A stretch of DNA of 50,174 nucleotides from Acidobacteriota bacterium (lineage in GTDB: Bacteria > Acidobacteriota > Vicinamibacteria > Vicinamibacterales > UBA8438). The notes under the pieces are model-generated. The model did no database searches and was not told the DNA's origin. It saw nothing but the letters and a program-made list of their open reading frames with translations. Location of the stretch: NCBI GenBank assembly GCA_026706755.1, contig JAPOYG010000346.1, positions 1-50,174 of the forward strand. The letters are read 5' to 3'. Shown here piece by piece: positions 2,157 to 13,985 of the stretch (positions are counted from its first letter, which is position 1; the number at the start of each line of letters is the position of its first letter). A program made the translations under genes and the position numbers.

Positions 2157-2744
2157 CTACTCCGGGGCCGCGGCGCCCGCCGCGTCGGAGGCCGGCGGCG
2201 GGGGTGGCGGCTCGGCCTGGGCCTGGGCCGGGGCGACGGGCTCCGGTTGGGCCGGCATGATGAGCCAGACCAGCACGTAGACGAGCACCCCGCCGACGAT
2301 CAGGCCCGGGAAGACCGACAGGACCACCCAGAGCAGGCGGACCGCGGTCGCGTCTACCTGAAAGTACTCGGCGATGCCTCCGCAGACGCCGCCGATCGTC
2401 ACGTCCCGCGTGGAGCGCTGCAGGCGCTTCCGGCCGCCGACCCCGCTGGTGATGACCGGCTCCGTGCCGTACGCGGCCTCCGGCACGATGAGCCAGCCCA
2501 CGGCGTAGGCGAGCACGCCGAGCAGGATGGTGCCGGGCACGATCGTCAGCACGACCCACAGCACCCGGACGAACACCGGGTCGACGTCGAGGTAGCGGGC
2601 TATGCCGCCGCACAGGCCGGCTATCTGGCGGTCCACCTGCGACCGCCGCAGCGCGGGCCGGTCCTCGGGTTCGCGGCGCGCGCCGCAGAACTGGCAGAAC
2701 GCCGCCGCGTCGGCCATTTCACGACCACATCGGTGACAGTGCAT
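2157..2744 (-). CDS. zinc-ribbon plus tandem PspC-domain membrane protein
   Basis: N-terminal MHCHRCG...FCQFCG zinc ribbon. There are two PspC-type units (IAGLCGGIARYLDVDPVFVRVLWVVL and IGGVCGGIAEYFQVDATAVRLLWVVL), each followed by a TM helix, then a Pro/Ala-rich tail. Confidence 0.8.
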   Translation of the reverse strand: MHCHRCGREMADAAAFCQFCGARREPEDRPALRRSQVDRQIAGLCGGIARYLDVDPVFVRVLWVVLTIVPGTILLGVLAYAVGWLIVPEAAYGTEPVITSGVGGRKRLQRSTRDVTIGGVCGGIAEYFQVDATAVRLLWVVLSVFPGLIVGGVLVYVLVWLIMPAQPEPVAPAQAQAEPPPPPPASDAAGAAAPE

Positions 2745-2878: not shown

Positions 2879-2911
2879 AGGAGTCCGCGCCGTTCTACGG
2901 CGCGGACTCCT
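2879..2911 (-). repeat. REP-like perfect palindrome abutting the stop codon of the TolB-like gene
   Basis: AGGAGTCCGCGCC-GTTCTAC-GGCGCGGACTCCT, a 13-bp perfect stem with a 7-nt loop. The stop codon (cta at 2910-2912) overlaps the arm, so the minus-strand transcript reads UAGGAGUCCGCGCC GUAGAAC GGCGCGGACUCCU. This is the same sequence as at 44865-44898. Confidence 0.7.
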
Positions 2912-4703
2912 ACTCGGCCCCAGGCGGCCCGAAGACGGCCGCCTGCCAGCCGCCCAGAAGTTGCATCGCGTTCGACCGTCCCGCCGGCCGGAGCATCAGG
3001 AGCCGCGACCCTGCGTCGACATCGTACGCCGGCAGATTGTCCAGCGGATCCACGAGAAACGCTCCGTCGAAGAGGTGCTCGGGCACGCCGGCGGCCGGGC
3101 GGCCCGAGCCGTCGCCGGCGATCGCCACGCGGAAGAGCCCGCGCCCCCGCCGGTAGAACAGCGTGGCCTCGGAAGGCGCCCAGACCGGCTCGGTGCCGCC
3201 GGCCGGCGACACGCGGAGCGGCGGCCCGGCGTGGTCGTCGACCGCCCGCACGTACACCTGATCGCCGTCGCCCCGCTCGGCGTCCGACACGTAGGCCAGC
3301 CACCGGCCGTCCGGCGAGAACGCCGGCGCGCGCTCGTTGGCCGCGGTGGCCAGCCACGTCTCCGGCTCCGCGCCCCGCCGCCAGAGCCAGATGTCGCGGG
3401 CCCGGTCGGCGTGCACCTCGTGGAAGGCAAGGCGCTGCCCGTCCGGCGACCAGGAGCCGGGCGCCCGCAGGTCGCCGCCGAACAGCGGACCGGAGACCTC
3501 CGCGTTCCCGGTCCGGAGGCGGAAGACGCGCTGCAGGCCGGTGCGCGACGAGGCGAACGTCAGGGCCGCTCCGTCGCGCGTCCAGAGCGGCGAGTGGTTG
3601 TCGCCGGCGTCGCGCGTGAGCTGCCGCCGCGTGCCCCGGTCGAGGTCGAGCAGCCAGAGGTCGCGGCGCAGGACCGCCGTCGTGGCGCTGAACGCCGCCT
3701 GCCGGCCGTTCGGAGCGGTGCGCGGGGTCTGGTGCCGGGCCGCCACGCCGTCGACCGCCTCGAACCGGCCGTCCGGGTCGACCCGCACGAGGTGCGAATC
3801 GCCCTCCGCCCGGGTGGGCGGAACGAAGACGAGCGTTCCGTCCCGCGCCGCCGCGATCCGCGAGCGGCCCAGGCCGCGGTCGCCCACCGCGCGGCCCGCC
3901 ACGCCCCGGAGCACGGGCCGCGGCGAGGGCACGGGCTGCCGGCCGGCGCTCTCGAGGTCGATGGCGGCCGCGAAGATCTCGCCCCGCCGCGCGAACACGA
4001 CCGCGGACGGCGCGACGAAGTGACCCCCGCCGTCCGCGAGCGGCAGCGTGCGCGAGTCTCCCGTCTCGCGGTCGAGGAGAGCCAGGCGCGGGTCGCGCCC
4101 CCGGCGGCCCACCGTGTAGAGCACGTGGCGCGCGTCGATCGCGTGCGGCCAGCCGTGCGCCGTCTCCTCCGCCTCCTCGTCGACGGCGGTCAGCGCGACC
4201 GGGTCGCCGCCGCCGGCGGGCACTTCCTGGAGGCCGGCGCGCCCGGGGCCGCCGAAGAGGATCGTGCCGCCCGGAGTCCACGCCCCGCCGGCCGGCTCGC
4301 CGGCCAGGCGGCAGACGACGGCCGGCGCCGCCGCGTCGTCCCCCGGCGCCACCGTCTTGAGGAACCCGTCCGCGAAGAACCCCACCGTCTCGCCGTCGGG
4401 CGAGAAGAAGGGCTGGCTCGCACCCTCCGTGCCCGGGACGGACCGGGCGTCGAAGCGGTCCAGCCGCCGGACGTAGAGGCGAGAGCGCCCGTCCCGTATC
4501 GCGGTATAGGCGATCCGGCGGCCGTCGCCCGAGATCGCCACGTCGAGCAGGTCGAGGTCCGAGGACACGCGGATCGACACCGCCTGCCGCGGCGGGGGTG
4601 GGGGCGGGGGCTCCCGCAACAGGAGCCACGCCGCGCCGGCGCCGATCGCGGCCCCGGTCAGGGCCGCGAGGGCCGCGCTCGCGAGCACCGTGCGGCGCAC
4701 CAT
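2910..4703 (-). CDS. membrane-anchored TolB-like (PD40/WD40-like) beta-propeller protein
   Basis: N-terminal TM (VLASAALAALTGAAIGAGAAWLLL) and a poly-Pro linker. It is followed by repeated PD40-like units (FSPDGETVGF, WSPDGQRLAF, FSPDGRWLAYVSD, WTRDGAALTF). Confidence 0.75.
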   Translation of the reverse strand: MVRRTVLASAALAALTGAAIGAGAAWLLLREPPPPPPPRQAVSIRVSSDLDLLDVAISGDGRRIAYTAIRDGRSRLYVRRLDRFDARSVPGTEGASQPFFSPDGETVGFFADGFLKTVAPGDDAAAPAVVCRLAGEPAGGAWTPGGTILFGGPGRAGLQEVPAGGGDPVALTAVDEEAEETAHGWPHAIDARHVLYTVGRRGRDPRLALLDRETGDSRTLPLADGGGHFVAPSAVVFARRGEIFAAAIDLESAGRQPVPSPRPVLRGVAGRAVGDRGLGRSRIAAARDGTLVFVPPTRAEGDSHLVRVDPDGRFEAVDGVAARHQTPRTAPNGRQAAFSATTAVLRRDLWLLDLDRGTRRQLTRDAGDNHSPLWTRDGAALTFASSRTGLQRVFRLRTGNAEVSGPLFGGDLRAPGSWSPDGQRLAFHEVHADRARDIWLWRRGAEPETWLATAANERAPAFSPDGRWLAYVSDAERGDGDQVYVRAVDDHAGPPLRVSPAGGTEPVWAPSEATLFYRRGRGLFRVAIAGDGSGRPAAGVPEHLFDGAFLVDPLDNLPAYDVDAGSRLLMLRPAGRSNAMQLLGGWQAAVFGPPGAE

Positions 4704-4718: not shown

Positions 4719-5702
4719 TCAGTCCCCGTAGCGGGCGCGGGCGGCGTCCAGATCCGCCGCAACCTGCCGCGCCAGACTCTCGGGCGCCCGCACGCGCACG
4801 CCCGGTCCGAAGCTCAGGATCCAGCTCCGCAGCGCCCCGTCGTTGCACACGTCCATCGTGACGACGACCGACCCCCCCGGCCCGGGCGCCAACGCCTGCG
4901 ACGGATGCCAGACCCGTTCCTGGACGTAGGGGGCGAGATCGGCCGCGAACTCGAGCTCGACCCGCTCGGGGGGGCCCTGGTGGATGCCGAGCGAGTGGGG
5001 GAAGGCCGCCTCGCCCAGGTCCTCGACCGGCTCGAAGGTCTCGTCGAGGGGCGTCAGGCGCCGGATCCGTTCGACGGCGAACGTGCGCACCTGGCCGTAG
5101 CGCGGCACGTAGGCGAAGAGATACAGGCCTCCTTCGGCGTAGACGAGGCGGTAGGGATCGATGCGGTACTCCTTCTCCCGCCGGCTGGATCGCGAGTGAT
5201 AGCGCATCTCCAGCCGGCGCTGGTGCAGCAGCGCGTCGAGGAGGCGGCCGATGGCGGCGCGCTGCAGCGCGTCGTCGAGGCGCCGCGCGGGCGGCGCCTT
5301 GGCCTGGATGACGTCCGGCAGGCGGTCGAGGAAGCGGCGCAGCCGCGGGCCGAGGGCCGCCTCGAGCTTGGCGAACGCTCCCCGGAGGTCCTGGCCGAAG
5401 GGCGGGAGGGCGAAGCATTCGACGAGCGTGCGGCTGAAGTAGAGCGCCGACAGCTCGGCGAGGGTGAAGGCCGTGTGATCGAGCCTCCGGAAGGGCCGCG
5501 TGTCGAGCCGCCAGCGCTTCGCGGCCTCGCCCGGCTCGTCGTAGAGCGGGAAGCCCGCCTCCTGCAAGGCCTCGAGGTCGCGGCGGATCGTCCTGGTGGT
5601 GACGCCGGTCGACTCGGCAAGCTGGCGGATCGTCGCGCCCCGCGAGGCCTCCATCTCGCGGAGGATGGTCCACTGGCGGATGACTTCGGCGTTGCGGGGC
5701 AT
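4719..5702 (-). CDS. HTH plus WYL-domain transcriptional regulator
   Basis: N-terminal winged-HTH (RQWTILREMEASRGATIRQLAESTGVTTRTIRRDLEALQEAGFPLY). The central WYL-type block is IDPYRLVYAEGGLYLFAYVPRYGQVRTFAVERI, followed by a C-terminal extension. There is only a 15-nt gap to the downstream TolB-like gene. Confidence 0.85.
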   Translation of the reverse strand: MPRNAEVIRQWTILREMEASRGATIRQLAESTGVTTRTIRRDLEALQEAGFPLYDEPGEAAKRWRLDTRPFRRLDHTAFTLAELSALYFSRTLVECFALPPFGQDLRGAFAKLEAALGPRLRRFLDRLPDVIQAKAPPARRLDDALQRAAIGRLLDALLHQRRLEMRYHSRSSRREKEYRIDPYRLVYAEGGLYLFAYVPRYGQVRTFAVERIRRLTPLDETFEPVEDLGEAAFPHSLGIHQGPPERVELEFAADLAPYVQERVWHPSQALAPGPGGSVVVTMDVCNDGALRSWILSFGPGVRVRAPESLARQVAADLDAARARYGD

Positions 5703-5945
5703 CGCGCGGGGCGGGCGCCGGCGGCGGTTCGCGGCATCGAACCGCGCCGGGGCGCGTCACGTCTCTTTCGATCATACGGGCGATGCGAAGACCCGCCGCC
5801 GGGTATGACCTTCCCTGTCACACCGCCCGCGTACGTTGGGTGGAGGCGGTCGCCTGTCGTCCCGAGCGCCCGCGGCCCCCGGCGTTGGACTCGCGGTGGG
5901 TGGAGGCGCGGCAGACACTCGGTACGCGATGGGGAAAGGGATACG

Positions 5946-6341
5946 ATGATGAGATGGCGCGCGGCGGGATCGACACGGCAGCTCGACCTCGGCTACAGCG
6001 CCGCGCGGCTGCCCGCCGCGCGGCGGGTCGCGGGCCCGCGACCCGGCCCGGCGCGGCTCTGCGCGGTGTGCGGTCGCTGGCCGGCTCGGCTCACTCTCGA
6101 ACGGACGCGCGGCGGCCCGCCCCCGCGCGTCTGCCTGCGCTGCCACGTGACGGCGTTGCGCCAGAGGCGGTCGGCGTACGCGGGGCCGGCGCGGAACGCG
6201 CAGCGTTCGACCGTGTCCGGCCGGAGCGACCTGATCGTCCCGCGGGAGAGCGCCCTGCCCCTCGAGGCGAAGTACCGGCTGCTCTCCCGGTCGCGCCGCG
6301 AGGCGCAGGAGGTTGCGCGGCGGGCTCTGATGTCGGACTGA
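5946..6341 (+). CDS. small Arg-rich putative zinc-ribbon protein (paralog 1)
   Basis: In-frame tail of the artefactual ORF 1614-6341, starting at ATGATG 5946, which is preceded by GAAAGGGA. About 9 in 10 codons end in G/C by my count. The motif is LCAVCG-x20-VCLRC-x3-ALR, and the C-terminal LPLEAKYRLLSRSRREAQEVARRAL looks helical. No family recognised. Confidence 0.4.
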   Translation: MMRWRAAGSTRQLDLGYSAARLPAARRVAGPRPGPARLCAVCGRWPARLTLERTRGGPPPRVCLRCHVTALRQRRSAYAGPARNAQRSTVSGRSDLIVPRESALPLEAKYRLLSRSRREAQEVARRALMSD

Positions 6342-6436
6342 AGGCGGACGGCGCGCCGCTCTTCCTCTACGGAAGGCGCTGCGGCCGCCGATACCTCGTA
6401 CAGGGGCTTGGGGCCCTTTCGCGGGAGGTGTGCGAC

Positions 6437-6664
6437 ATGACCAGTCTCGATGGCCCGGAAGGTGACGAAAGACGGCGCGAGATAGCCCGCCACGCGTCGC
6501 GGCGGGAAGGGAAGCTCTGTCGCCGCTGCGGGAAGCGCGACGCGCTGGCGGCTCGGTACACCTGGAAGCGGCGCGTCAACCGGCGACGCCATCACGACCT
6601 CTGCTTCCGCTGCCGCCGGGCGTTGCGGGATTCGGAACGGGCAACGGCTCCGCCGCGTCGCTGA
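6437..6664 (+). CDS. small Arg-rich putative zinc-ribbon protein (paralog 2)
   Basis: ATG 6437 is preceded by GGGAGG (6423-6428) at SD distance. The motif LCRRCG-x22-LCFRC-x2-ALR has the same pattern as ORF 5946-6341. The stop at 6662-6664 lies 3 nt before the AddB-like start candidate. Confidence 0.45.
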   Translation: MTSLDGPEGDERRREIARHASRREGKLCRRCGKRDALAARYTWKRRVNRRRHHDLCFRCRRALRDSERATAPPRR

Positions 6665-6667
6665 ACC

Positions 6668-9600
6668 TTGCGTCCGCCTGGTCGAGTAACGCTCCTTACC
6701 TCGCCGGCGGCGGCCGCCCGCCTCGCCGCCGCGGGCGATGCCCTGCGGCGCGGCCTCGCTGCCGGCGAGGCGGTGGCCGTGGGCGAGACCCGCGACGCCG
6801 TGGACGAGCTCGCGCACGAGGTCGCCCGGGACGCCGGGGCGACCTTCGGGCTCTACCGCTACAGCCTGCGGCAGCTTGCCGGGCGCATCGCCGCGGCGGA
6901 GCTCGCCCGGCGCGGGCTCGCGCCCGCCACCCGCCTGGCCGCGGAAGCCGTGGCCAAGCACGCTGCGTTCATCGAGCAGCAGCACCGGGCTCTCGACTAC
7001 CTGGGCCCCATCGCCGCGTTCCGCTCCTTCGGACGGGTGCTCGCGGCGACGCTCGGCGATCTCCGCCGGGCGGACTGCGATTCCGCGGCCGCCGGCGAGC
7101 TGGACGGCAGCGGCCCGGACGTCGCCCGCCTCGCGCGGCGCTACGACCGCCTGCTCGAAGAGGATCGCCTGGTCGACGGCGCGGCGCTGTACCGGGCGGC
7201 GGCCCGGCTCGTGCGGACAGGCGGCGCCGGCGCCGGGGCAACCCTCACCGGCGCGCTCGTGCTGCTGGACGTGGCGGTGACCGACGACGCCTCCTACGAG
7301 CTCGTGGCGGCGCTCGCCGGCCGCGCCGCCTCCGTGCTGGCCACCGTGCCTGCCGGCGACGAGCGCACGCTGGCGGCGCTCCGGCGCCTGCCGGGCGCCG
7401 TCGAGGAGGCCGCGCCGGGGAGCAGCGCCGCCCCGCGCGTGGACGAGCCGCTGCCGCGCGTGCAGCACTTCCTCTTCGCGCCCGCCGACCCGCCACCCTT
7501 CCGCGCCGCCGCCGACGAGCCGGCGATTCGCGTGTTCTCCGCGCCCGGGGAGAGCCGGGAGGCGGTCGAGATCGCCCGTGTCCTCGCCGCCGAGGCGGCG
7601 CGCGGCGTGCCGTTCGACCAGATGGCGGTGCTCGTGCGGTCGCCGGGCACCTACCTCCGTCTCGTGGAGACGGCGCTCGGACGCGCGGGCATCCCGGCCT
7701 GGTACGCCAAGGGGACGCGCGTTCCCGATCCGGCCGGCCGCGCGTTCCTGGCGCTGCTGGCCTGCGCCGCCGAGCAACTGTCGGCCCGCCGCTTCTCCGA
7801 GTACCTCTCGCTCGGCCAGGTACCGTCGCCTGCCCCGGACGGAGGCCCGCCCGCGGACCGGGGCCGCTGGGTCCCGCCCGACAGCGCTCCCGAACTCGTT
7901 CCGGCGCCCGCGCAGCTTGCGCTCTTCGACGCTCCATCGTCGGCGCCGGCGGACGCCGGCTCCCCGCCCGACGCGCCCCCGGACGGCGACGAGCGTCCGG
8001 TGCTCGAGGGATCGCTGCGCGCGCCCTTCCGCTGGGAGCGCCTGCTGGTCGAGTCGGCGGTGGTCGGCGGCCGGGACCGCTGGGAGCGGCGGCTGAAGGG
8101 TCTGGCCCGGGAGATGGCCCTCCAGGTCGCCGCCCTGCGCGCCGACGAGCCCGAGTCGCCGCGCGCGGCGCGCCTGGAGCTCGACCTCGCGAACCTGGAG
8201 CATCTGCGGCGCTTCGCGCTTCCGGTCGTCGCCCGACTCGCCGCGTTTCCGGCCGCCGCGCTCTGGGCCGAGTGGCTGGACCGGCTGGAGGCGCTGGCGC
8301 CGATGGTGCTCGCCGCGCCCGATCGGGTGCTGGCGGTGCTGGCCGACCTGCGTCCGATGGCCGCGGTAGGACCGGTGGGGCTCGGGGACGTCCGCGACGT
8401 CCTGCAGGAGCAGCTGACGGAGCTGACGGCCGAGCAGCCGGGGCGCCGCTTCGGGCGGGTGTTCGTCGGCGGCCCGGAGCAGGCGCGCGGCCGGCGCTTC
8501 GCCGTGGTCTGCGTGCCGGGGCTCGCCGAGCACGTCTTCCCGCAGCGGCAACGGCAGGATCCCCTGCTCCTGGACGAGCTTCGGGCCCGGCTCGACGCGC
8601 CGGAGCCGGGCACGCCGCGCCTGGGGCTGGCCGATCGGCACGATCGGAACGCGCGCGAGAAGCTGCTGCTGCGCCTGGCGGTGGGGGCCGCCACCGAGCG
8701 CGTCGTGCTCTCCTACCCGCGCCTGGAGGTCGGCTCGGCGCGTCCGCGCGTGCCGTCCTTCTACGCGCTGGACGTCGAGCGCGCCCGCACCGGGCGCGTG
8801 CCGGACTTCGAGCAGATCGAGCGCGACGCGTTCCGTGTCGTCGAGGCGCACCTGGCGTGGCCGGCCCCCAAGGATCCCGCCCGCGCCATCGACCCCTCCG
8901 AGCACGACCTGGCCGTGCTGCGCGAGCTGCTGCACGCGGCCCCGGAGGCGCCGCTCGCAGGCCGGGCGCGCTACCTGTTCCGGCTCCATCCTGCCCTGCG
9001 CCGCACCCTCGCCGCGCGCTGGGTGCGCTGGAAGCGGCCCTGGTCGAAGTTCGACGGGCTGTACGACCCCGGCGACCCCGACGCGAAGACCATGCTCGCG
9101 GCCCACCGGCTGGATGCCCGGGCGTACTCCGTCTCCGCGCTGCAGCGCTTCGCGGCCTGCCCCTACCAGTTCCTGCTGTCCGCCGTCCACCGCCTGCACC
9201 CGCGCGAGGAGGTCGAGCCGCCCCTGGAGCGGATGGATCCGCTGACGCGCGGCAGCATGTTCCACGAGGTGCAGCAGGAGGTGTTCGACGCGCTCCGCGA
9301 GCGGCGGGCGTTGCCCCTGACGGCCGCGGGCGTCCCGGAGGCCGACGTCGTGACCGACGCGGTGCTCGATCGCGTCGCGGCCGACTACGAGGAACGGCTC
9401 GCCCCCGCCATCCCGCGCGTCTGGCAGGACGAGGTGGAATCGATGCGGGCCGACCTGAAGGGCTGGCTGCGCCACGTCGCCAACGAGGGCGGCGAGTGGA
9501 GGCCGATCGACGCGGAGTTCCCCTTCGGCCTCGGCCCCCGCGCGGAGCCGGACGGACCCGCCGCGGTGGGCGGGCGGCCGCGGCCTCCGGGGGCCGATGC

Positions 9601-10108
9601 GGGGTGGGATCCCGACTGCGCGCCGGATCCCGCGGCGATCGACGGGCGCTGGCGGCTGCGCGGGAGGGTGGATCTCGTCGAGGCGCGGACCGGTCCGACC
9701 GACCGCGGCGAGCTGCGCGTGACGGACCACAAGACCGGCGGGAACCGCACCCGCCCGGGCATGGTGGTCGGCGGGGGCGAGACGCTGCAGCCCGTCCTCT
9801 ACGGTCTCGCCGTCGAGGAGGTCTCGGGGCGTCCCGTCGACGAGGCGCGGCTGTTCTTCTGCACCGCGACCGGGCGCTACGAGCAGCGCGTCGTGTCCCT
9901 CGGCGAGGACGAGCGCCGGCACGGCGTCGAGGTGCTGGAGATCATCGACCGGGCGGTCGAGGCGGGCACCCTGCTTCCGGCGCCGCGGGAGGGTGCCTGC
10001 CGGTGGTGCGACTACCAGGCCGTGTGCGGACCGGGCGCGGAGCAGCGCGCGGCACGCAAGGATGGTGCGCCGCTCCGCGATCTGGCTGGCCTCCGGGACC
10101 TCCGATGA
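6668..10108 (+). CDS. addB: AddB-like PD-(D/E)XK nuclease subunit with Fe-S cluster cysteines (no Walker A seen)
   Basis: 1146-aa ORF. The C-terminal nuclease core is [11 protein letters not shown]. The Cys pattern is FAACPYQF ... [10 protein letters not shown] (C-x2-C-x5-C at 9998-10027), as in AddB/Cas4-type nucleases. It sits 10 nt upstream of the AddA-like gene. The start is uncertain: TTG 6668 has no SD, and an in-frame GTG near 6771 is an alternative. Confidence 0.8.
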
Positions 10109-10118
10109 GGGCGCCGCG

Positions 10119-13100
10119 ATGAGCGTGCCGCCGCTCGCCGACGCGGACGTCCGGCACCGCATCCGGACGGCGCTCGACGAGTCGATCGTCGTGGAGGCGG
10201 CCGCCGGGACGGGGAAGACCAGCGTCCTGGTGGAGCGCATCGTCGAGGTGCTCGCGGCCGGGCGCGCCCCCGTGGACGAGATCCTGGCCGTCACCTTCAC
10301 CGAGAAGGCCGCGGGCGAGCTGAAGCTGCGGCTTCGAGGAGCGCTCGAGGAGGCCCGGCGGCACGCCGCCGCGGCCGGGCCCGACCCCGCCGCCGCCGAG
10401 CGCCACCGGTGCCTCGACGAGGCCATCGCCCACCTGGAGGAGGCGCAGGTCAGCACCATCCACGCATTCTGCGCCGACCTGCTGCGGGAGCGCCCCGTGG
10501 AGGCCCGCGTCGACCCCCGGTTCGAGGTTCTCGACGACCGCGGCGCGCAGCGCCTGTTCCGGCAGGTGTTCGACGGCTGGCTGCAGACGGCCCTGGACGA
10601 CCCGCCGCCGGGCGTGCGGCGCGCGCTCTGGCGCCGGGACCGGCCCGCGTTCGGTGAGCCGGGCGGCGACGGCCCGACGGGGCGCCTGCGGCGCGCGGCC
10701 TGGGAGCTGGCGGAATGGCGGGACTTCGAACGGCCCTGGCGCCGGGAAGCGGACTTCCGGCGCGAGGCGACCATCGACGAAGTGGTCGGGCACCTGGTGC
10801 GCTTCGCCGCCCTGACGGACCGGGCCGCCAACCGCCGCAGCGACGGCCTCTTCCTCGACACCGAGCCTGCGCGCTCGGTCGCGCGGTCGATCCGGGAGTC
10901 CGACGACGTGCGCTCGCAGCGGGACTACGACTTCGTCGAGGCGCAACTGGTCGAGCTGGCCGCGCACCGCCGCTTCGCCCGACCGCGCAAGGGGTTCGGC
11001 GCGGTGTACGGGGAGGATCTTCCCCGCGCGCACGTTCTCGAGCAGCACGAGGGAGTCGTCGCCGTGCTCGAGCGCTTCCGGGCGGTGGCGGACGCCGATC
11101 TCGCCGCGCTGCTCCGGGAGGAGCTCCGGGCGCCGATCGAAGGCTACGGGCAGGCGAAGACGGAGGCGGGGCGCCTCGACTTCGTCGACCTCCTGCTGCG
11201 GGCGCGAGACCTGATCTGCGGCCACGACGACGTCCGTGCCGCGGCGCAGCGGCGATACGCGCGGGTCTTCGTCGACGAGTTCCAGGACACCGATCCGCTC
11301 CAGGCCGAGATTCTGCTCCTGCTGGCGGCGGAGGATCCGTCCGAGCGCGACTGGCGCGCGGTCGTCCCCGCGGCGGGGAAGCTCTTCATCGTCGGCGATC
11401 CGAAGCAGTCGATCTACCGCTTCCGCCGCGCCGACGTCGGGGTCTACCGCCAGGTGACCGTGCAGCTCGCGCGGCACGAAGTGGCGCATGTCGCGCTCAC
11501 CACGAGCTTCCGCGCCGTCCCCGCCATCCAGCGCTTCGTCAACCATGCCTTCGCGCCGCTGATGGGCACGCCGGGGGACGCCGCCCCGGACGGGGACGAC
11601 GGTGGGGTGGTGGGCGGCGCGGCGGTCGGCGGCTCCAGCGGGGAAGACCGCCCGGCGGGCGCGGCGGTCGGGGGCGCGGCGGCCGGCGGCCCCCCCGGGC
11701 TGCCCGGCTACGTGCCGCTGGCGGCGCACCGTGCGGACGACCCGAAGCAGCCGGCGGTCGTGGCGTTGCCGGTCCCTCGCCCCTACGGCCCCTGGGGGCG
11801 TCCCACGGGTCGGGCGATCGAGGCATCGCTCCCGGATGCGGTGGGGGCGTTCGTCGCATGGCTCGTCCGCGAGAGCGGCTGGACCGTCACCGAGCGGCAG
11901 GCGCGGCCGGCGTCGGGCGGCTACGAGACGGTGCCCGTGCCCGTCGAGGCGCGGCACGTCGCGCTGCTGTTCCGCCGCTTCTACGCCTGGGGGAGCGACG
12001 TCACGCGCAGCTACGTCGACGCCCTCGAGGCCCGCGGGCTGCGCCATCTCCTGGTCGGCGGCCGCTCGTTCCACGAGCGCGACGAGGTGGCGGCGATGCG
12101 CGCGGTGCTGACCGCCATCGAGTGGCCGGACGACGAGCTGGCCGTCTTCGCGGCCCTCCGCGGGACGCTGTTCGCAGTGGACGACGAGACGCTCCTGGCG
12201 TACCGCCACCGCTTCGGCCGCTTCCATCCGTTCCGGGTCCCCCGCGCGCTGACGGCGGGCGAGATCGAGGGTGCGGATCGCCTGCTGCCGGTCGCCGACG
12301 CCCTGGAGCTGCTGCGGCGGCTGCACCGCACCCGCAACGAGGTCCCGATCGCGCACACGATCGGACAGTTGCTCGAGGCGACGCGGGCCCATGCCGGCTT
12401 CGTGATGCGCCGGGCGGGCGAGCAGGTGCTCGCCAACGTGCTGCAGCTCGGGGAGATGGCCCGCCGCTACGAGCAGGGCGGCGGCCTCTCCTTCCGTGGA
12501 TTCGTCGAGGAGCTGCGCGACGAGGCGGCCGAAGGTCAGGCCGGGGAGGCGCCCATCCTGGAGCAGGGGAGCGACGGCGTGCGGATCATGACCGTGCACG
12601 GGGCCAAGGGGCTCGAGTTCCCGGTGGTGATCCTCGCGGACCCGACGTCCCGGCTGCACCGGGCCACGGCCGGCCGCTTCATCGACTCCGCGCGGGGCAT
12701 CTGCGCGCTGCGGCTGGGCGGCTGGGCTCCGCTCGATCTGCTCGACCACGAGGCGGAGGAGATCGCGCGGGACCGCGAGGAGGGGATTCGGCTGGCCTAC
12801 GTGGCCGCCACCCGAGCCCGCGACCTCCTGGTGGTGCCGGCCGAGGGAGACGCGGCGCCCGCCGAGGACTGGACCGTCCGCGGGGACGCGGGAGCGACGC
12901 GGGCGCACCCGTTGCGCGGCGGTTGGGCGAGCCCGCTCTATGCGTCGCTCTATCCCCCGCTCGATCGCCGGCGCCATCCGGAGGCGGCGGCCGGATGCCC
13001 CGCGTTCGGGCGCGATTCCGTGCTTGCGCGGCCGCCCGAGGAACCCGGCGGCGAGGACAACGTCGCCCCGGGCCGGCATGTCGTCGGGAGGGGGCCGGGC

Positions 13101-13985
13101 ACCGCCCGCGGGCAGGTGTCGGGACGCATCCTGCCGTTCGCGGGCGGCCGGGCCGCCGCCGGGCCGGGAGCCGATGCGGGGCACTCGGTGGTCTGGTGGG
13201 ATCCCGGACTGCTGCAGCTCGACTCGGACGCGGCGGTCGGCATCCGCCGCGAGGATCTGCTGTCGCGGGACGCGCCCGGCGAGCAGGTGGAGCAGGATCT
13301 CCAGCGCTATCGTGCGTGGTTGCGGCGCCACGGGGAGACCGTGGAGAAGGGGGCCCGGCCGAGCCTTGCCGTGACGACGGCGACCGAGCTCGCGCGCGAA
13401 GCGCCTGCCGAGCCGGTCGACGAGGAGTCGCTTGCCGCGCCCTCCCCGCCGCTCGCCGTGACCCTCGTGGAGCTGCCGCGCGATTCCGGGCGGCCGGAGG
13501 GCCCGCGCTTCGGCTCCCTGGTGCACCAGGTCCTGGCCGACGTGCCGCTGGACGAGGCGGCCGCGGCGGATCCCCGAGCCGCGGGGGCGACGGGTGGGGC
13601 ATCCGCATCGGTATCCGCCGTCGCCCGCCTGAACGGCCGCATCCTGGGCGCGACCGAAGAGGAGATCGCGGCCGCGGCCCGCGTGGCGGCGCGCGTCCTG
13701 GAGCACCCCCTGCTGGCGCGCGCGCGGGCGGCGTCACGCCGCGGGGAATGCCGCCGGGAGGCTCCGGTGAGCATGCGCGCGGACGACGGTCGCGTGATCG
13801 AGGGGACGGTCGACGTCGCGTTCCGCGAGGACGGGGTCTGGACGGTTGTCGATTACAAGACCGACCGCGAGATCGGCGAGGCGGGGGGTGCGGCCGAGGT
13901 GTACCGGCGGCAGGTCACCCTCTATGCGCGCATCATTGCCCGGGCGACCGGCGAGCCGGCCCAAGCCGTGCTGCTGCGCGTGTGA
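10119..13985 (+). CDS. addA: AddA-like UvrD/Rep-family helicase with C-terminal PD-(D/E)XK nuclease
   Basis: ORF 9993-13985 trimmed to ATG 10119 ([11 protein letters not shown]). It has Walker [54 protein letters not shown] and [13 protein letters not shown]. The C-terminal nuclease block is [21 protein letters not shown] ... YRRQVTLYA. Confidence 0.85.

Follow-up and report, generated by a model that had tools for sequence, protein, structure and literature searches.

A candidate DriD-type WYL regulator, its promoter box and two zinc-ribbon mini-proteins at an addAB locus of Acidobacteriota

What does a WYL-domain regulator control when its gene diverges from an addBA pair, and what are the two small open reading frames (ORFs) that lie between them? 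The question is raised by a stretch of 50,174 nucleotides (nt) from a soil Acidobacteriota bacterium of the order Vicinamibacterales (assembly GCA_026706755.1, contig JAPOYG010000346.1, positions 1 to 50,174), hereafter the window, which has a G+C content of 75% and belongs to a draft genome of 5.8 Mb in 713 contigs. The original prediction suggested that the locus may be a WYL-controlled break-processing module with two unnoticed small accessory proteins. The features that it named, i.e. the WYL gene, the intergenic gap of 243 base pairs (bp), the two small ORFs (orf1 and orf2), the AddB-like and AddA-like genes and the TolB-like and PspC genes, all lie where it had placed them. The reading that we favour, with a probability of roughly 0.72, is that the regulator is a homodimeric DriD-type activator that senses single-stranded DNA (ssDNA) and would control an SOS-independent break-repair operon, orf1-orf2-addB-addA. 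The evidence comprises gene content, conservation, the architecture of the box and promoter, the distribution of the box and the families of the genes downstream of it; regulation is deduced from sequence. The central features are the following.

4719..5702, minus strand: WYL regulator of 327 amino acids (aa), with the domain order helix-turn-helix (HTH)-WYL-WCX (Pfam HTH_11 2e-10, WYL 1.4e-18, WCX 2.1e-17)
5802..5824, plus strand: WYL box, a 23-bp palindrome, GGTATGAC-CTTCCCT-GTCACACC, with 8-bp arms and a 7-bp spacer, conserved in all related loci examined
5832..5837, plus strand: predicted -10 element, TACGTT, of the promoter ahead of orf1-orf2-addBA; its distance from the WYL box is fixed
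5946..6341, plus strand: orf1, 131 aa, 21% Arg, isoelectric point 11.8, Cys 39/42/63/66; G+C content at third codon positions (GC3) 0.91, typical here; orthologues conserved
6437..6664, plus strand: orf2, 75 aa, 29% Arg, C4 zinc ribbon with Cys 28/31/56/59; GC3 only 0.76
6668..10108, plus strand: AddB-like subunit, 1146 aa, start codon TTG, 3 nt after the orf2 stop (Pfam PDDEXK_1 8e-30)
10119..13985, plus strand: AddA-like subunit, 1288 aa, 10 nt after the addB stop (Pfam UvrD-helicase 2e-53, UvrD_C, PDDEXK_1)

Conservation of the locus was followed in 8 relatives fetched through a genome search and in 23 species-level loci from a public genome collection, across which the identity of AddB falls from 97% to 56%. 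The gene order is always (thrB ... PspC, TolB-like) WYL <> orf1, (orf2), addB, addA, in the 8 relatives and in 23 of the 23 loci, so that the synteny check suggested with the original prediction does not refute it. The orthologues of the regulator are 65-98% identical over the family. The gaps within the presumed operon measure 95 nt (orf1-orf2), 3 nt (orf2-addB) and 10 nt (addB-addA), and no terminator-like site was found within orf1-orf2-addB-addA.

The gap between the WYL gene and orf1 (5703-5945) carries the box, a palindrome that can also be written GGTATGACC-TTCCC-TGTCACACC. Alignment of the intergenic regions reveals in every genome the block GGT(A/G)TGAC-C(T/C)nCCCT-GTCACACC, with TAnGnT 8 nt downstream. 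Among 28 distinct sites collected, TAnnnT stands exactly 10 nt after GTCAC in 27, the remaining site having CATGCT at that place, and the architecture of box plus -10 is conserved in 9 aligned regions and in the 23 loci. A consensus scan of the region did not find a sigma-70 -35/-10 pair. The halves of the box are unusable as a -35, since the spacers would be 21 or 10 bp, and none of the 28 distinct box promoters has a usable -35. The box is presumed to be the binding site of a WYL dimer, covering the -35 position. It did not recur in any of 100 shuffled windows and is unique in this genome, its position weight matrix score being 49.6 bits vs 19.2 for the second-best site. The latter (19 bits, contig C235) precedes a gene for an exported protein; it looks like a chance match and was discarded as a further target.

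The strongest functional evidence is the order-wide regulon. A sample of 201 Vicinamibacterales genomes was searched with the pattern RTGACCNNNCCTGTCAY-N10-TANNNT, allowing at most one mismatch, with the same pattern reversed as control. The box together with its -10 was detected in 135 of the 201 genomes, at one to nine sites in each, and the reversed control gave no match in any of the 201. Downstream genes were read at 60 sites, representatives being confirmed with Pfam. They include recA (2 sites), sbcD-sbcC (1), rmuC (9), DUF2130 (5), addB (1), the WYL gene itself (3) and genes for histone-deacetylase-like (3), ARPP-1 (2) and vWA (2) proteins; radA follows one type of site that recurs in about 10 genomes of a single family. 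The most frequent class, at about 22 of the 60 sites, consists of small proteins that have a zinc ribbon of the type [LV]C[LF]xC, the C-terminal helix Y..L..RRRRAQ..AR.AL with which orf1 ends, or both. In one family (f10) the box lies directly upstream of an AddB/AddA-like pair devoid of small ORFs, and in another (f4) it is followed by an orf1-like gene and then by addB, which provides a second, independent link of the box to AddAB.

Judged by these downstream genes, the box is a recombination-repair promoter element. Because recA, radA, sbcCD, rmuC and addB lie downstream of it, a WYL-controlled, LexA-independent break-repair module is the best reading of the locus. This part of the original prediction is thereby strengthened at the level of sequence, by the DriD-type operator and promoter in the gap and by the boxes at repair genes across the order. 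The family to which the window belongs appears to have reduced the regulon to one operon (two in the complete genome G024), and in other families of the order the same regulator and box would control a wider recombination-repair regulon.

The second box of G024 (L041, G024:C1:3360588-3363752; box at 1876-1893 on the minus strand) lies 12 nt, not 10, from its -10. It would drive an orf2-like zinc-ribbon gene that is coupled translationally to a gene for a 149-aa protein belonging to no Pfam family, followed by a PIN-like gene. In a genome of another family (L085, G039:C128) a box at 4328-4345 on the plus strand lies just past the WYL gene and upstream of cas2- and cas4/cas1-like genes. There, the same type of regulator may thus also control CRISPR (clustered regularly interspaced short palindromic repeats) adaptation genes.

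The type of regulator was sought among proteins of solved structure. The best sequence matches in the PDB are PafBC (3e-14), PafC (1e-11) and DriD (9e-11). At E<0.01 the solved relatives are only PafBC/PafC, DriD and three entries named 'WYL domain-containing protein'; no CapW- or BrxR-labelled chain is among the matches at that threshold. PafBC, the best match, stems from Actinobacteria and shares with the proposed system an ssDNA-sensing WYL activator, a LexA-independent repair regulon and a promoter, RecA-NDp, in which the element of the regulator replaces the -35 ahead of a TAnnnT -10. It differs in being a heterodimer or fusion of two paralogues that acts on a non-palindromic motif (PMC6789036), whereas the window has one gene, a palindrome and a single-operon regulon. 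Identity with PafBC was therefore rejected, a single gene and a palindromic site being set against two paralogous chains and the non-palindromic RecA-NDp motif. Just one other WYL protein is encoded in the genome, on a separate contig, with 27% identity.

The regulator also resembles DriD of Caulobacter crescentus, a wHTH-3HB-WYL-WCX (winged helix-turn-helix, three-helix bundle) homodimeric activator (PDB 8TP8, 9PFV). The two proteins have the same length, 327 aa, and the same domain order. DriD recognizes ATACGAC-N7-GTCGTAT (PMC13004042, PMC10853764), likewise a pseudo-palindrome with a 7-nt spacer. Its promoters have no -35; the site overlaps the -35 position at a constant distance from the -10 (PMC13004042), as does the box here. 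Divergently from driD runs an operon whose first gene encodes a small uncharacterized protein, CCNA_03891; DriD activates this operon and not itself (PMC13004042). The window has the same divergent layout headed by a small protein, and the regulator would act alongside LexA, as DriD does.

The contacts of DriD with its site are also informative. In either half-site, residues R37 and R41 recognize G2 and the guanine that pairs with C4; C1 is contacted by E40 (PMC10853764). In the HMMER alignment by which the regulator was compared with DriD, R37, R41 and K62 are kept. The box (TGAC-N7-GTCA vs CGAC-N7-GTCG in DriD) shows no variation at the bases that R37 and R41 read, G2 and C4 in either half-site. 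Residue 40 is Arg vs Glu in DriD and position 1 of the half-site is T vs C; as far as the alignment tells, residue 40 co-varies with position 1. Of the residues by which DriD contacts ssDNA, Y168, S172, Y192 and R204 are kept, two show conservative changes (R176 to K, W206 to F), and R178, R189, R207, Y240 and R288 are not kept. Other differences must also be noted. The sequence similarity is remote and the phylum here is Acidobacteriota; the spacer is conserved and C-rich (CnnnCCT), DriD's being AT-rich; the cargo consists of addBA and zinc-ribbon mini-proteins, and no homologue of DidA or CCNA_03891 was detected. A further relative by description is SiwR of Mycobacterium smegmatis, which is reported to be a homodimer-type HTH-WYL-WCX activator of adjacent genes under genotoxic stress (PMC10693628). 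Its targets differ, being DinB/YfiT-like enzymes. Taken together, the regulator is presumably a single-chain, homodimeric activator of the DriD/SiwR type.

The genome encodes two LexA homologues, so the WYL system would be a second pathway parallel to SOS, as in Caulobacter. On contig C630 of the same genome, which is partly masked, a second LexA homologue adjoins a polymerase-like gene of the IMS family (PF00817) (929-1498 and 2304-2636; L092, L094). The polymerase-like gene looks ImuB-like, and this cassette could serve SOS mutagenesis.

The following course of events is proposed. Upon DNA damage, ssDNA would bind the WYL/WCX pocket of the regulator, and the two winged-helix domains, thus freed, would bind GGTRTGAC-N7-GTCACACC at 5802-5824. 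The bound site would occupy the place of a -35, 10 nt upstream of the -10 TACGTT, where the dimer would bring in the housekeeping RNA polymerase and so make up for the -35 that the promoter itself lacks. Transcription of orf1, orf2, addB and addA would provide the cell with more of its sole AddAB-type end-resection enzyme and with two small, very basic zinc-ribbon proteins. We infer, in particular, that the WYL protein binds the box, that it activates rather than represses, that ssDNA is the signal and that addBA is co-transcribed with the small genes.

Several points weigh against this scheme. No more than about 7 of the 12 ssDNA-contact residues of DriD are conserved; R207, Y240 and R288 are not among them. 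More boxes could lie in the unassembled gaps of a 713-contig draft. A constitutive internal promoter of addBA could be housed in the 95-nt gap between orf1 and orf2 (190-280 nt in genomes without orf2). Finally, a palindrome that overlaps a promoter also fits the operator of a repressor. An alternative model assumes that a repressor of the CapW/BrxR type occupies the palindrome and is released by ssDNA, giving the same induction by damage with the opposite sign. WYL repressors that respond to ssDNA do exist (PMC11662680), the operator overlaps the core of the promoter, and generic WYL models of PADLOC match the regulator. Nevertheless, the model appears distinctly unlikely, given that none of the 28 promoters has a usable -35 (with box-half spacers of 21 or 10 bp) and that the PDB matches at E<0.01 include activators and no chain labelled CapW or BrxR. 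Moreover, the rigid 10-nt distance to the -10 is typical of activation of the DriD type (PMC13004042).

It is also conceivable, if unlikely, that the regulator controls orf1 (and orf2) only and that addBA depends mostly on a constitutive promoter of its own further downstream, their adjacency being an accident of gene order in this family. Boxes in other families do precede orf1-type genes that are not accompanied by addBA, 8 genomes of the family possess AddB though both WYL and orf1 are missing, and there is room for a promoter in the orf1-addB gaps, which measure 95-280 nt. Against such an accident speak the order orf1-(orf2)-addB-addA, kept in 23 of 23 loci although AddB identity ranges over 56-97%, the 3 nt that separate the orf2 stop from the addB start, the terminator-like sites sought in vain between these genes, and the direct box-addB and box-orf1-like-addB arrangements of f10 and f4. 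WYL regulators often flank defence systems, and the locus could be seen as an anti-phage module composed of a WYL-regulated helicase-nuclease pair and small partners. Consistent with this, the box lies upstream of cas2/cas4 in one genome of the order and of vWA and ARPP-1 genes in others, and PADLOC reports domain-level matches to GajB, Cas4 and DruK. These matches are due to generic UvrD and PD-(D/E)XK domains and are weaker than those to AddA/RecB models; apart from them, no recognized defence gene adjoins the locus. The stable housekeeping synteny (thrB ... addA) over many genera with no signs of mobile elements, the fact that the locus encodes the only AddAB-type enzyme of the genome, and the company of recA, radA, sbcCD and rmuC elsewhere in the regulon all make a defence role very improbable. 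The DriD-type break-repair operon remains the preferred reading.

Both small ORFs are real genes, in agreement with the original prediction. No orthologous locus has either frame interrupted, and the encoded proteins are conserved; pairwise ratios of non-synonymous to synonymous substitution rates (dN/dS) are 0.31-0.54 for orf1 and 0.24-0.63 for orf2; and orf2, present in 18 of the 23 loci, has in every orthologue a GGAGG Shine-Dalgarno sequence 6-8 nt ahead of the ATG. The idea that the ORFs are non-coding or leader peptides was rejected on the strength of their conservation, the Shine-Dalgarno sites and dN/dS. The orf1 product consists of a disordered N-terminus with the motif QLDLGY, a C4 zinc ribbon with a helix, and a C-terminal basic helix, KYRLLSRSRREAQEVARRAL. 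An AlphaFold2 model places the ribbon at residues 38-63, a helix at 64-78 and, with confidence, another helix at 106-130; the linker between the two helices is disordered in the model, as is the N-terminus. The model of orf2 is poor, with a predicted local distance difference test score (pLDDT) of 58. The ribbons of orf1 and orf2 align profile-to-profile (hhalign probability 73%, E 3e-5), and in G037, from another family, a member combines a ribbon like that of orf2 with a tail like that of orf1. For these reasons, orf2 is probably a shortened paralogue of orf1, with homologous ribbons.

The orf1 family is small, with 43 cluster representatives among 1.84 billion proteins, and orf2 is represented by 8 annotated clusters. 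Neither protein matches a family in Pfam, NCBIfam or PADLOC. The nearest approach is DUF7685, a Pfam zinc-ribbon family with a gathering threshold of 27 bits: 6 of 30 members of the orf1 family score 25-26.5 bits, all below the threshold, and the orf1 of the window itself gives no match. When the PDB was searched for folds like that of the orf1 model, nothing came up below E 3.7, and the matches were generic zinc ribbons only. The orf1 family has the C-terminal basic helix as its conserved core and is variable in the ribbon and the N-terminal motif.

The C-terminal motif of orf1 (window 6230-6341), DLIVPRxSxLPxxxKYRLLSxxRRRAQExARRxL, is found again, with 55-67% identity, N-terminally in three other proteins of the same genome (C89:2240-2386, C426:1364-1489 and C430:12108-12230; L002-L004). 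In the two long ones it is followed by a hydrophobic segment, and their C-terminal regions are similar; the one tested with Pfam, on C89, contains a toastrack DUF4097 domain. Third-codon-position differences indicate selection at the protein level in these genes, and no WYL box is found at any of the three.

Do the small proteins belong to AddAB? On this point the original prediction, which had taken them for accessories, is not supported. Within the family, orf1 is present in 10 of the 10 genomes with the WYL regulator and in none of the 15 without it, and 8 family genomes contain AddB in the absence of both. The co-occurrence, together with AddB occurring without orf1, indicates that orf1 tracks the regulator and the box and not the nuclease. 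In other families (genomes G035, G029, G034 and G037), orf1-type genes lie behind a box beside the WYL gene without addBA; the proteins of G029 and G034 have no ribbon. It thus seems that the small proteins are not AddAB accessories, at least not specifically. A complete genome of the family, G013, encodes an orf2 homologue with 61% identity and a good Shine-Dalgarno site (L049, G013:C1:2285824-2286033). No WYL orthologue at the thresholds used and no orf1 was detected in this genome, and the pattern of box plus -10 is absent genome-wide. This zinc-ribbon mini-protein can therefore persist outside the WYL circuit.

Most likely, to judge from their sequences and distribution, the small proteins are nucleic-acid-binding effectors of the damage response tied to the regulator. 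A broader proposal, which we regard as tentative, is that orf1 and orf2 belong to an undescribed, order-wide superfamily of damage-induced C4-ribbon mini-proteins acting as new damage-response effectors. Its members may be recognizable by the ribbon type [LV]C[LF]xC, with or without the Arg-rich helix Y..L..RRRRAQ..AR.AL, and may be the signature first gene of WYL-box promoters. They could load or guide recombination nucleases (AddAB, RmuC) onto DNA ends, could hold replication by binding the sliding clamp through an N-terminal QLDLxY peptide, or could feed back on the WYL regulator. With respect to the clamp, 12-QLDLGY-17 of orf1, in the low-pLDDT N-terminus, was likened to clamp-binding hexapeptides such as 6-QLSLPL-11 of Hda (PMC5397184). 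Family f19 has K in place of the Q (KLDFG), and some members have no such motif. No recognizable C-terminal clamp motif was found in the DinB homologue of the genome, where one was sought for calibration. Since DinB gave no calibrating motif and the Q is not invariant across the order, clamp binding by orf1 via QLDLGY was downgraded to a minority hypothesis.

The enzyme pair itself has the hallmarks of AddAB of the Bacillus and alphaproteobacterial types, i.e. the order addB-addA, an AddA that combines a UvrD-type motor with a RecB nuclease, and an AddB that joins a degenerate N-terminal motor to a nuclease of the 4-Cys Fe-S pattern. The AddA-like protein displays GTGKT, an intact D...DYK nuclease motif and QxxxY. 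In the AddB-like protein, the PD-(D/E)XK nuclease lies at the C-terminus and shows the four-Cys pattern C...CxxCx5C, read in the translation, so that the Fe-S cluster is predicted; the N-terminus of the protein has no Walker A, and the motif FAACPYQF as well as one further sequence motif were seen. In NCBIfam, addA_alphas matches at 2e-70 with 238 bits vs a cut-off of 861, and addB_Gpos with 33 bits vs 904. Scores so far under the curated equivalog cut-offs indicate that the AddAB of the window represents a divergent lineage. The pair also differs from known AddAB in the two small ORFs and the WYL box upstream of it, an arrangement that, to our knowledge, has not been described for AddAB. Two relatives show irregularities. 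The addB of G010 (G010:C1:2069744-2073115) contains one in-frame TAG, and in G003 (L056/L045) the tblastn match to AddA spans residues 528-1288 only, after a gap of about 1.6 kb behind addB. A pseudogene, an insertion or an assembly problem could account for these cases.

We know of experimental demonstrations of WYL-run, SOS-independent damage responses only in Actinobacteria (PafBC, SiwR), Caulobacter (DriD) and Acinetobacter/Moraxellaceae. The type of regulator is already known; what is new is the phylum, the promoter box and the small proteins. Judging by the locus and the box survey, a DriD-like system would also exist in Acidobacteriota, a phylum that abounds in soil and hardly lends itself to laboratory work. 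Its putative regulon (recA, radA, sbcCD, rmuC, addAB) is readable from sequence. With no match in the reversed control, the 33-nt box pattern should be usable to predict damage-inducible genes in uncultured genomes. The tiny zinc-ribbon proteins would be the commonest and least understood output of the WYL-box response. If the deduction from sequence is right, the window also offers an example of an AddAB end-resection enzyme under a dedicated damage-sensing activator.

Other features of the intergenic region and of the WYL strand are the following.

5771..5776, minus strand: putative -10 (TATGAT) of the promoter of the WYL gene itself, in a conserved block
5834..5908, plus strand: leader in which (C)G(T/G)TGGGTGGAGGCG occurs twice as a direct repeat, at a distance of 60 bp; the repeat is real
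2910-4703, minus strand: PD40/TolB-like propeller gene, 15 nt after the WYL gene (Pfam, NCBIfam)
2157-2744, minus strand: gene for a PspC-domain protein (Pfam, NCBIfam)

The TolB-like and PspC genes keep their place within the family. In another family the WYL gene follows htpG instead, and for this reason they are probably not functional partners of the regulator. The block C(G/A/C)AT(C/A)ATA (ATCATA on the plus strand) is largely kept in nine aligned intergenic regions, one of which has CAACAGTAG, and TATGAT at 5771-5776 is probably the -10 of the WYL gene. In the genus of the window, the orf1 leader is about 100 nt long and contains the direct repeat. Copy 1 of the repeat is common to the genus only and copy 2 is shared with the closest genome only, other genera having short or no leaders; the repeat was consequently rejected as a regulatory site, being genus-specific and probably outside the conserved mechanism. 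In some other genera (G019, L050 / L064, ~9220-9260; also L073 and L074) just 5 nt separate the ATG of orf1 from the -10 (TAGGGTGAGTCATG), which implies a leaderless orf1 mRNA there. Finally, two database homologues of orf1 (P0026 and P0036) have called starts that lie too far upstream and begin with MTYPVTP, which is the translated WYL box (ATGACCTACCCTGTCACACC). Such starts are a recurring start-codon misannotation, and they also show that the box is conserved in distant members.

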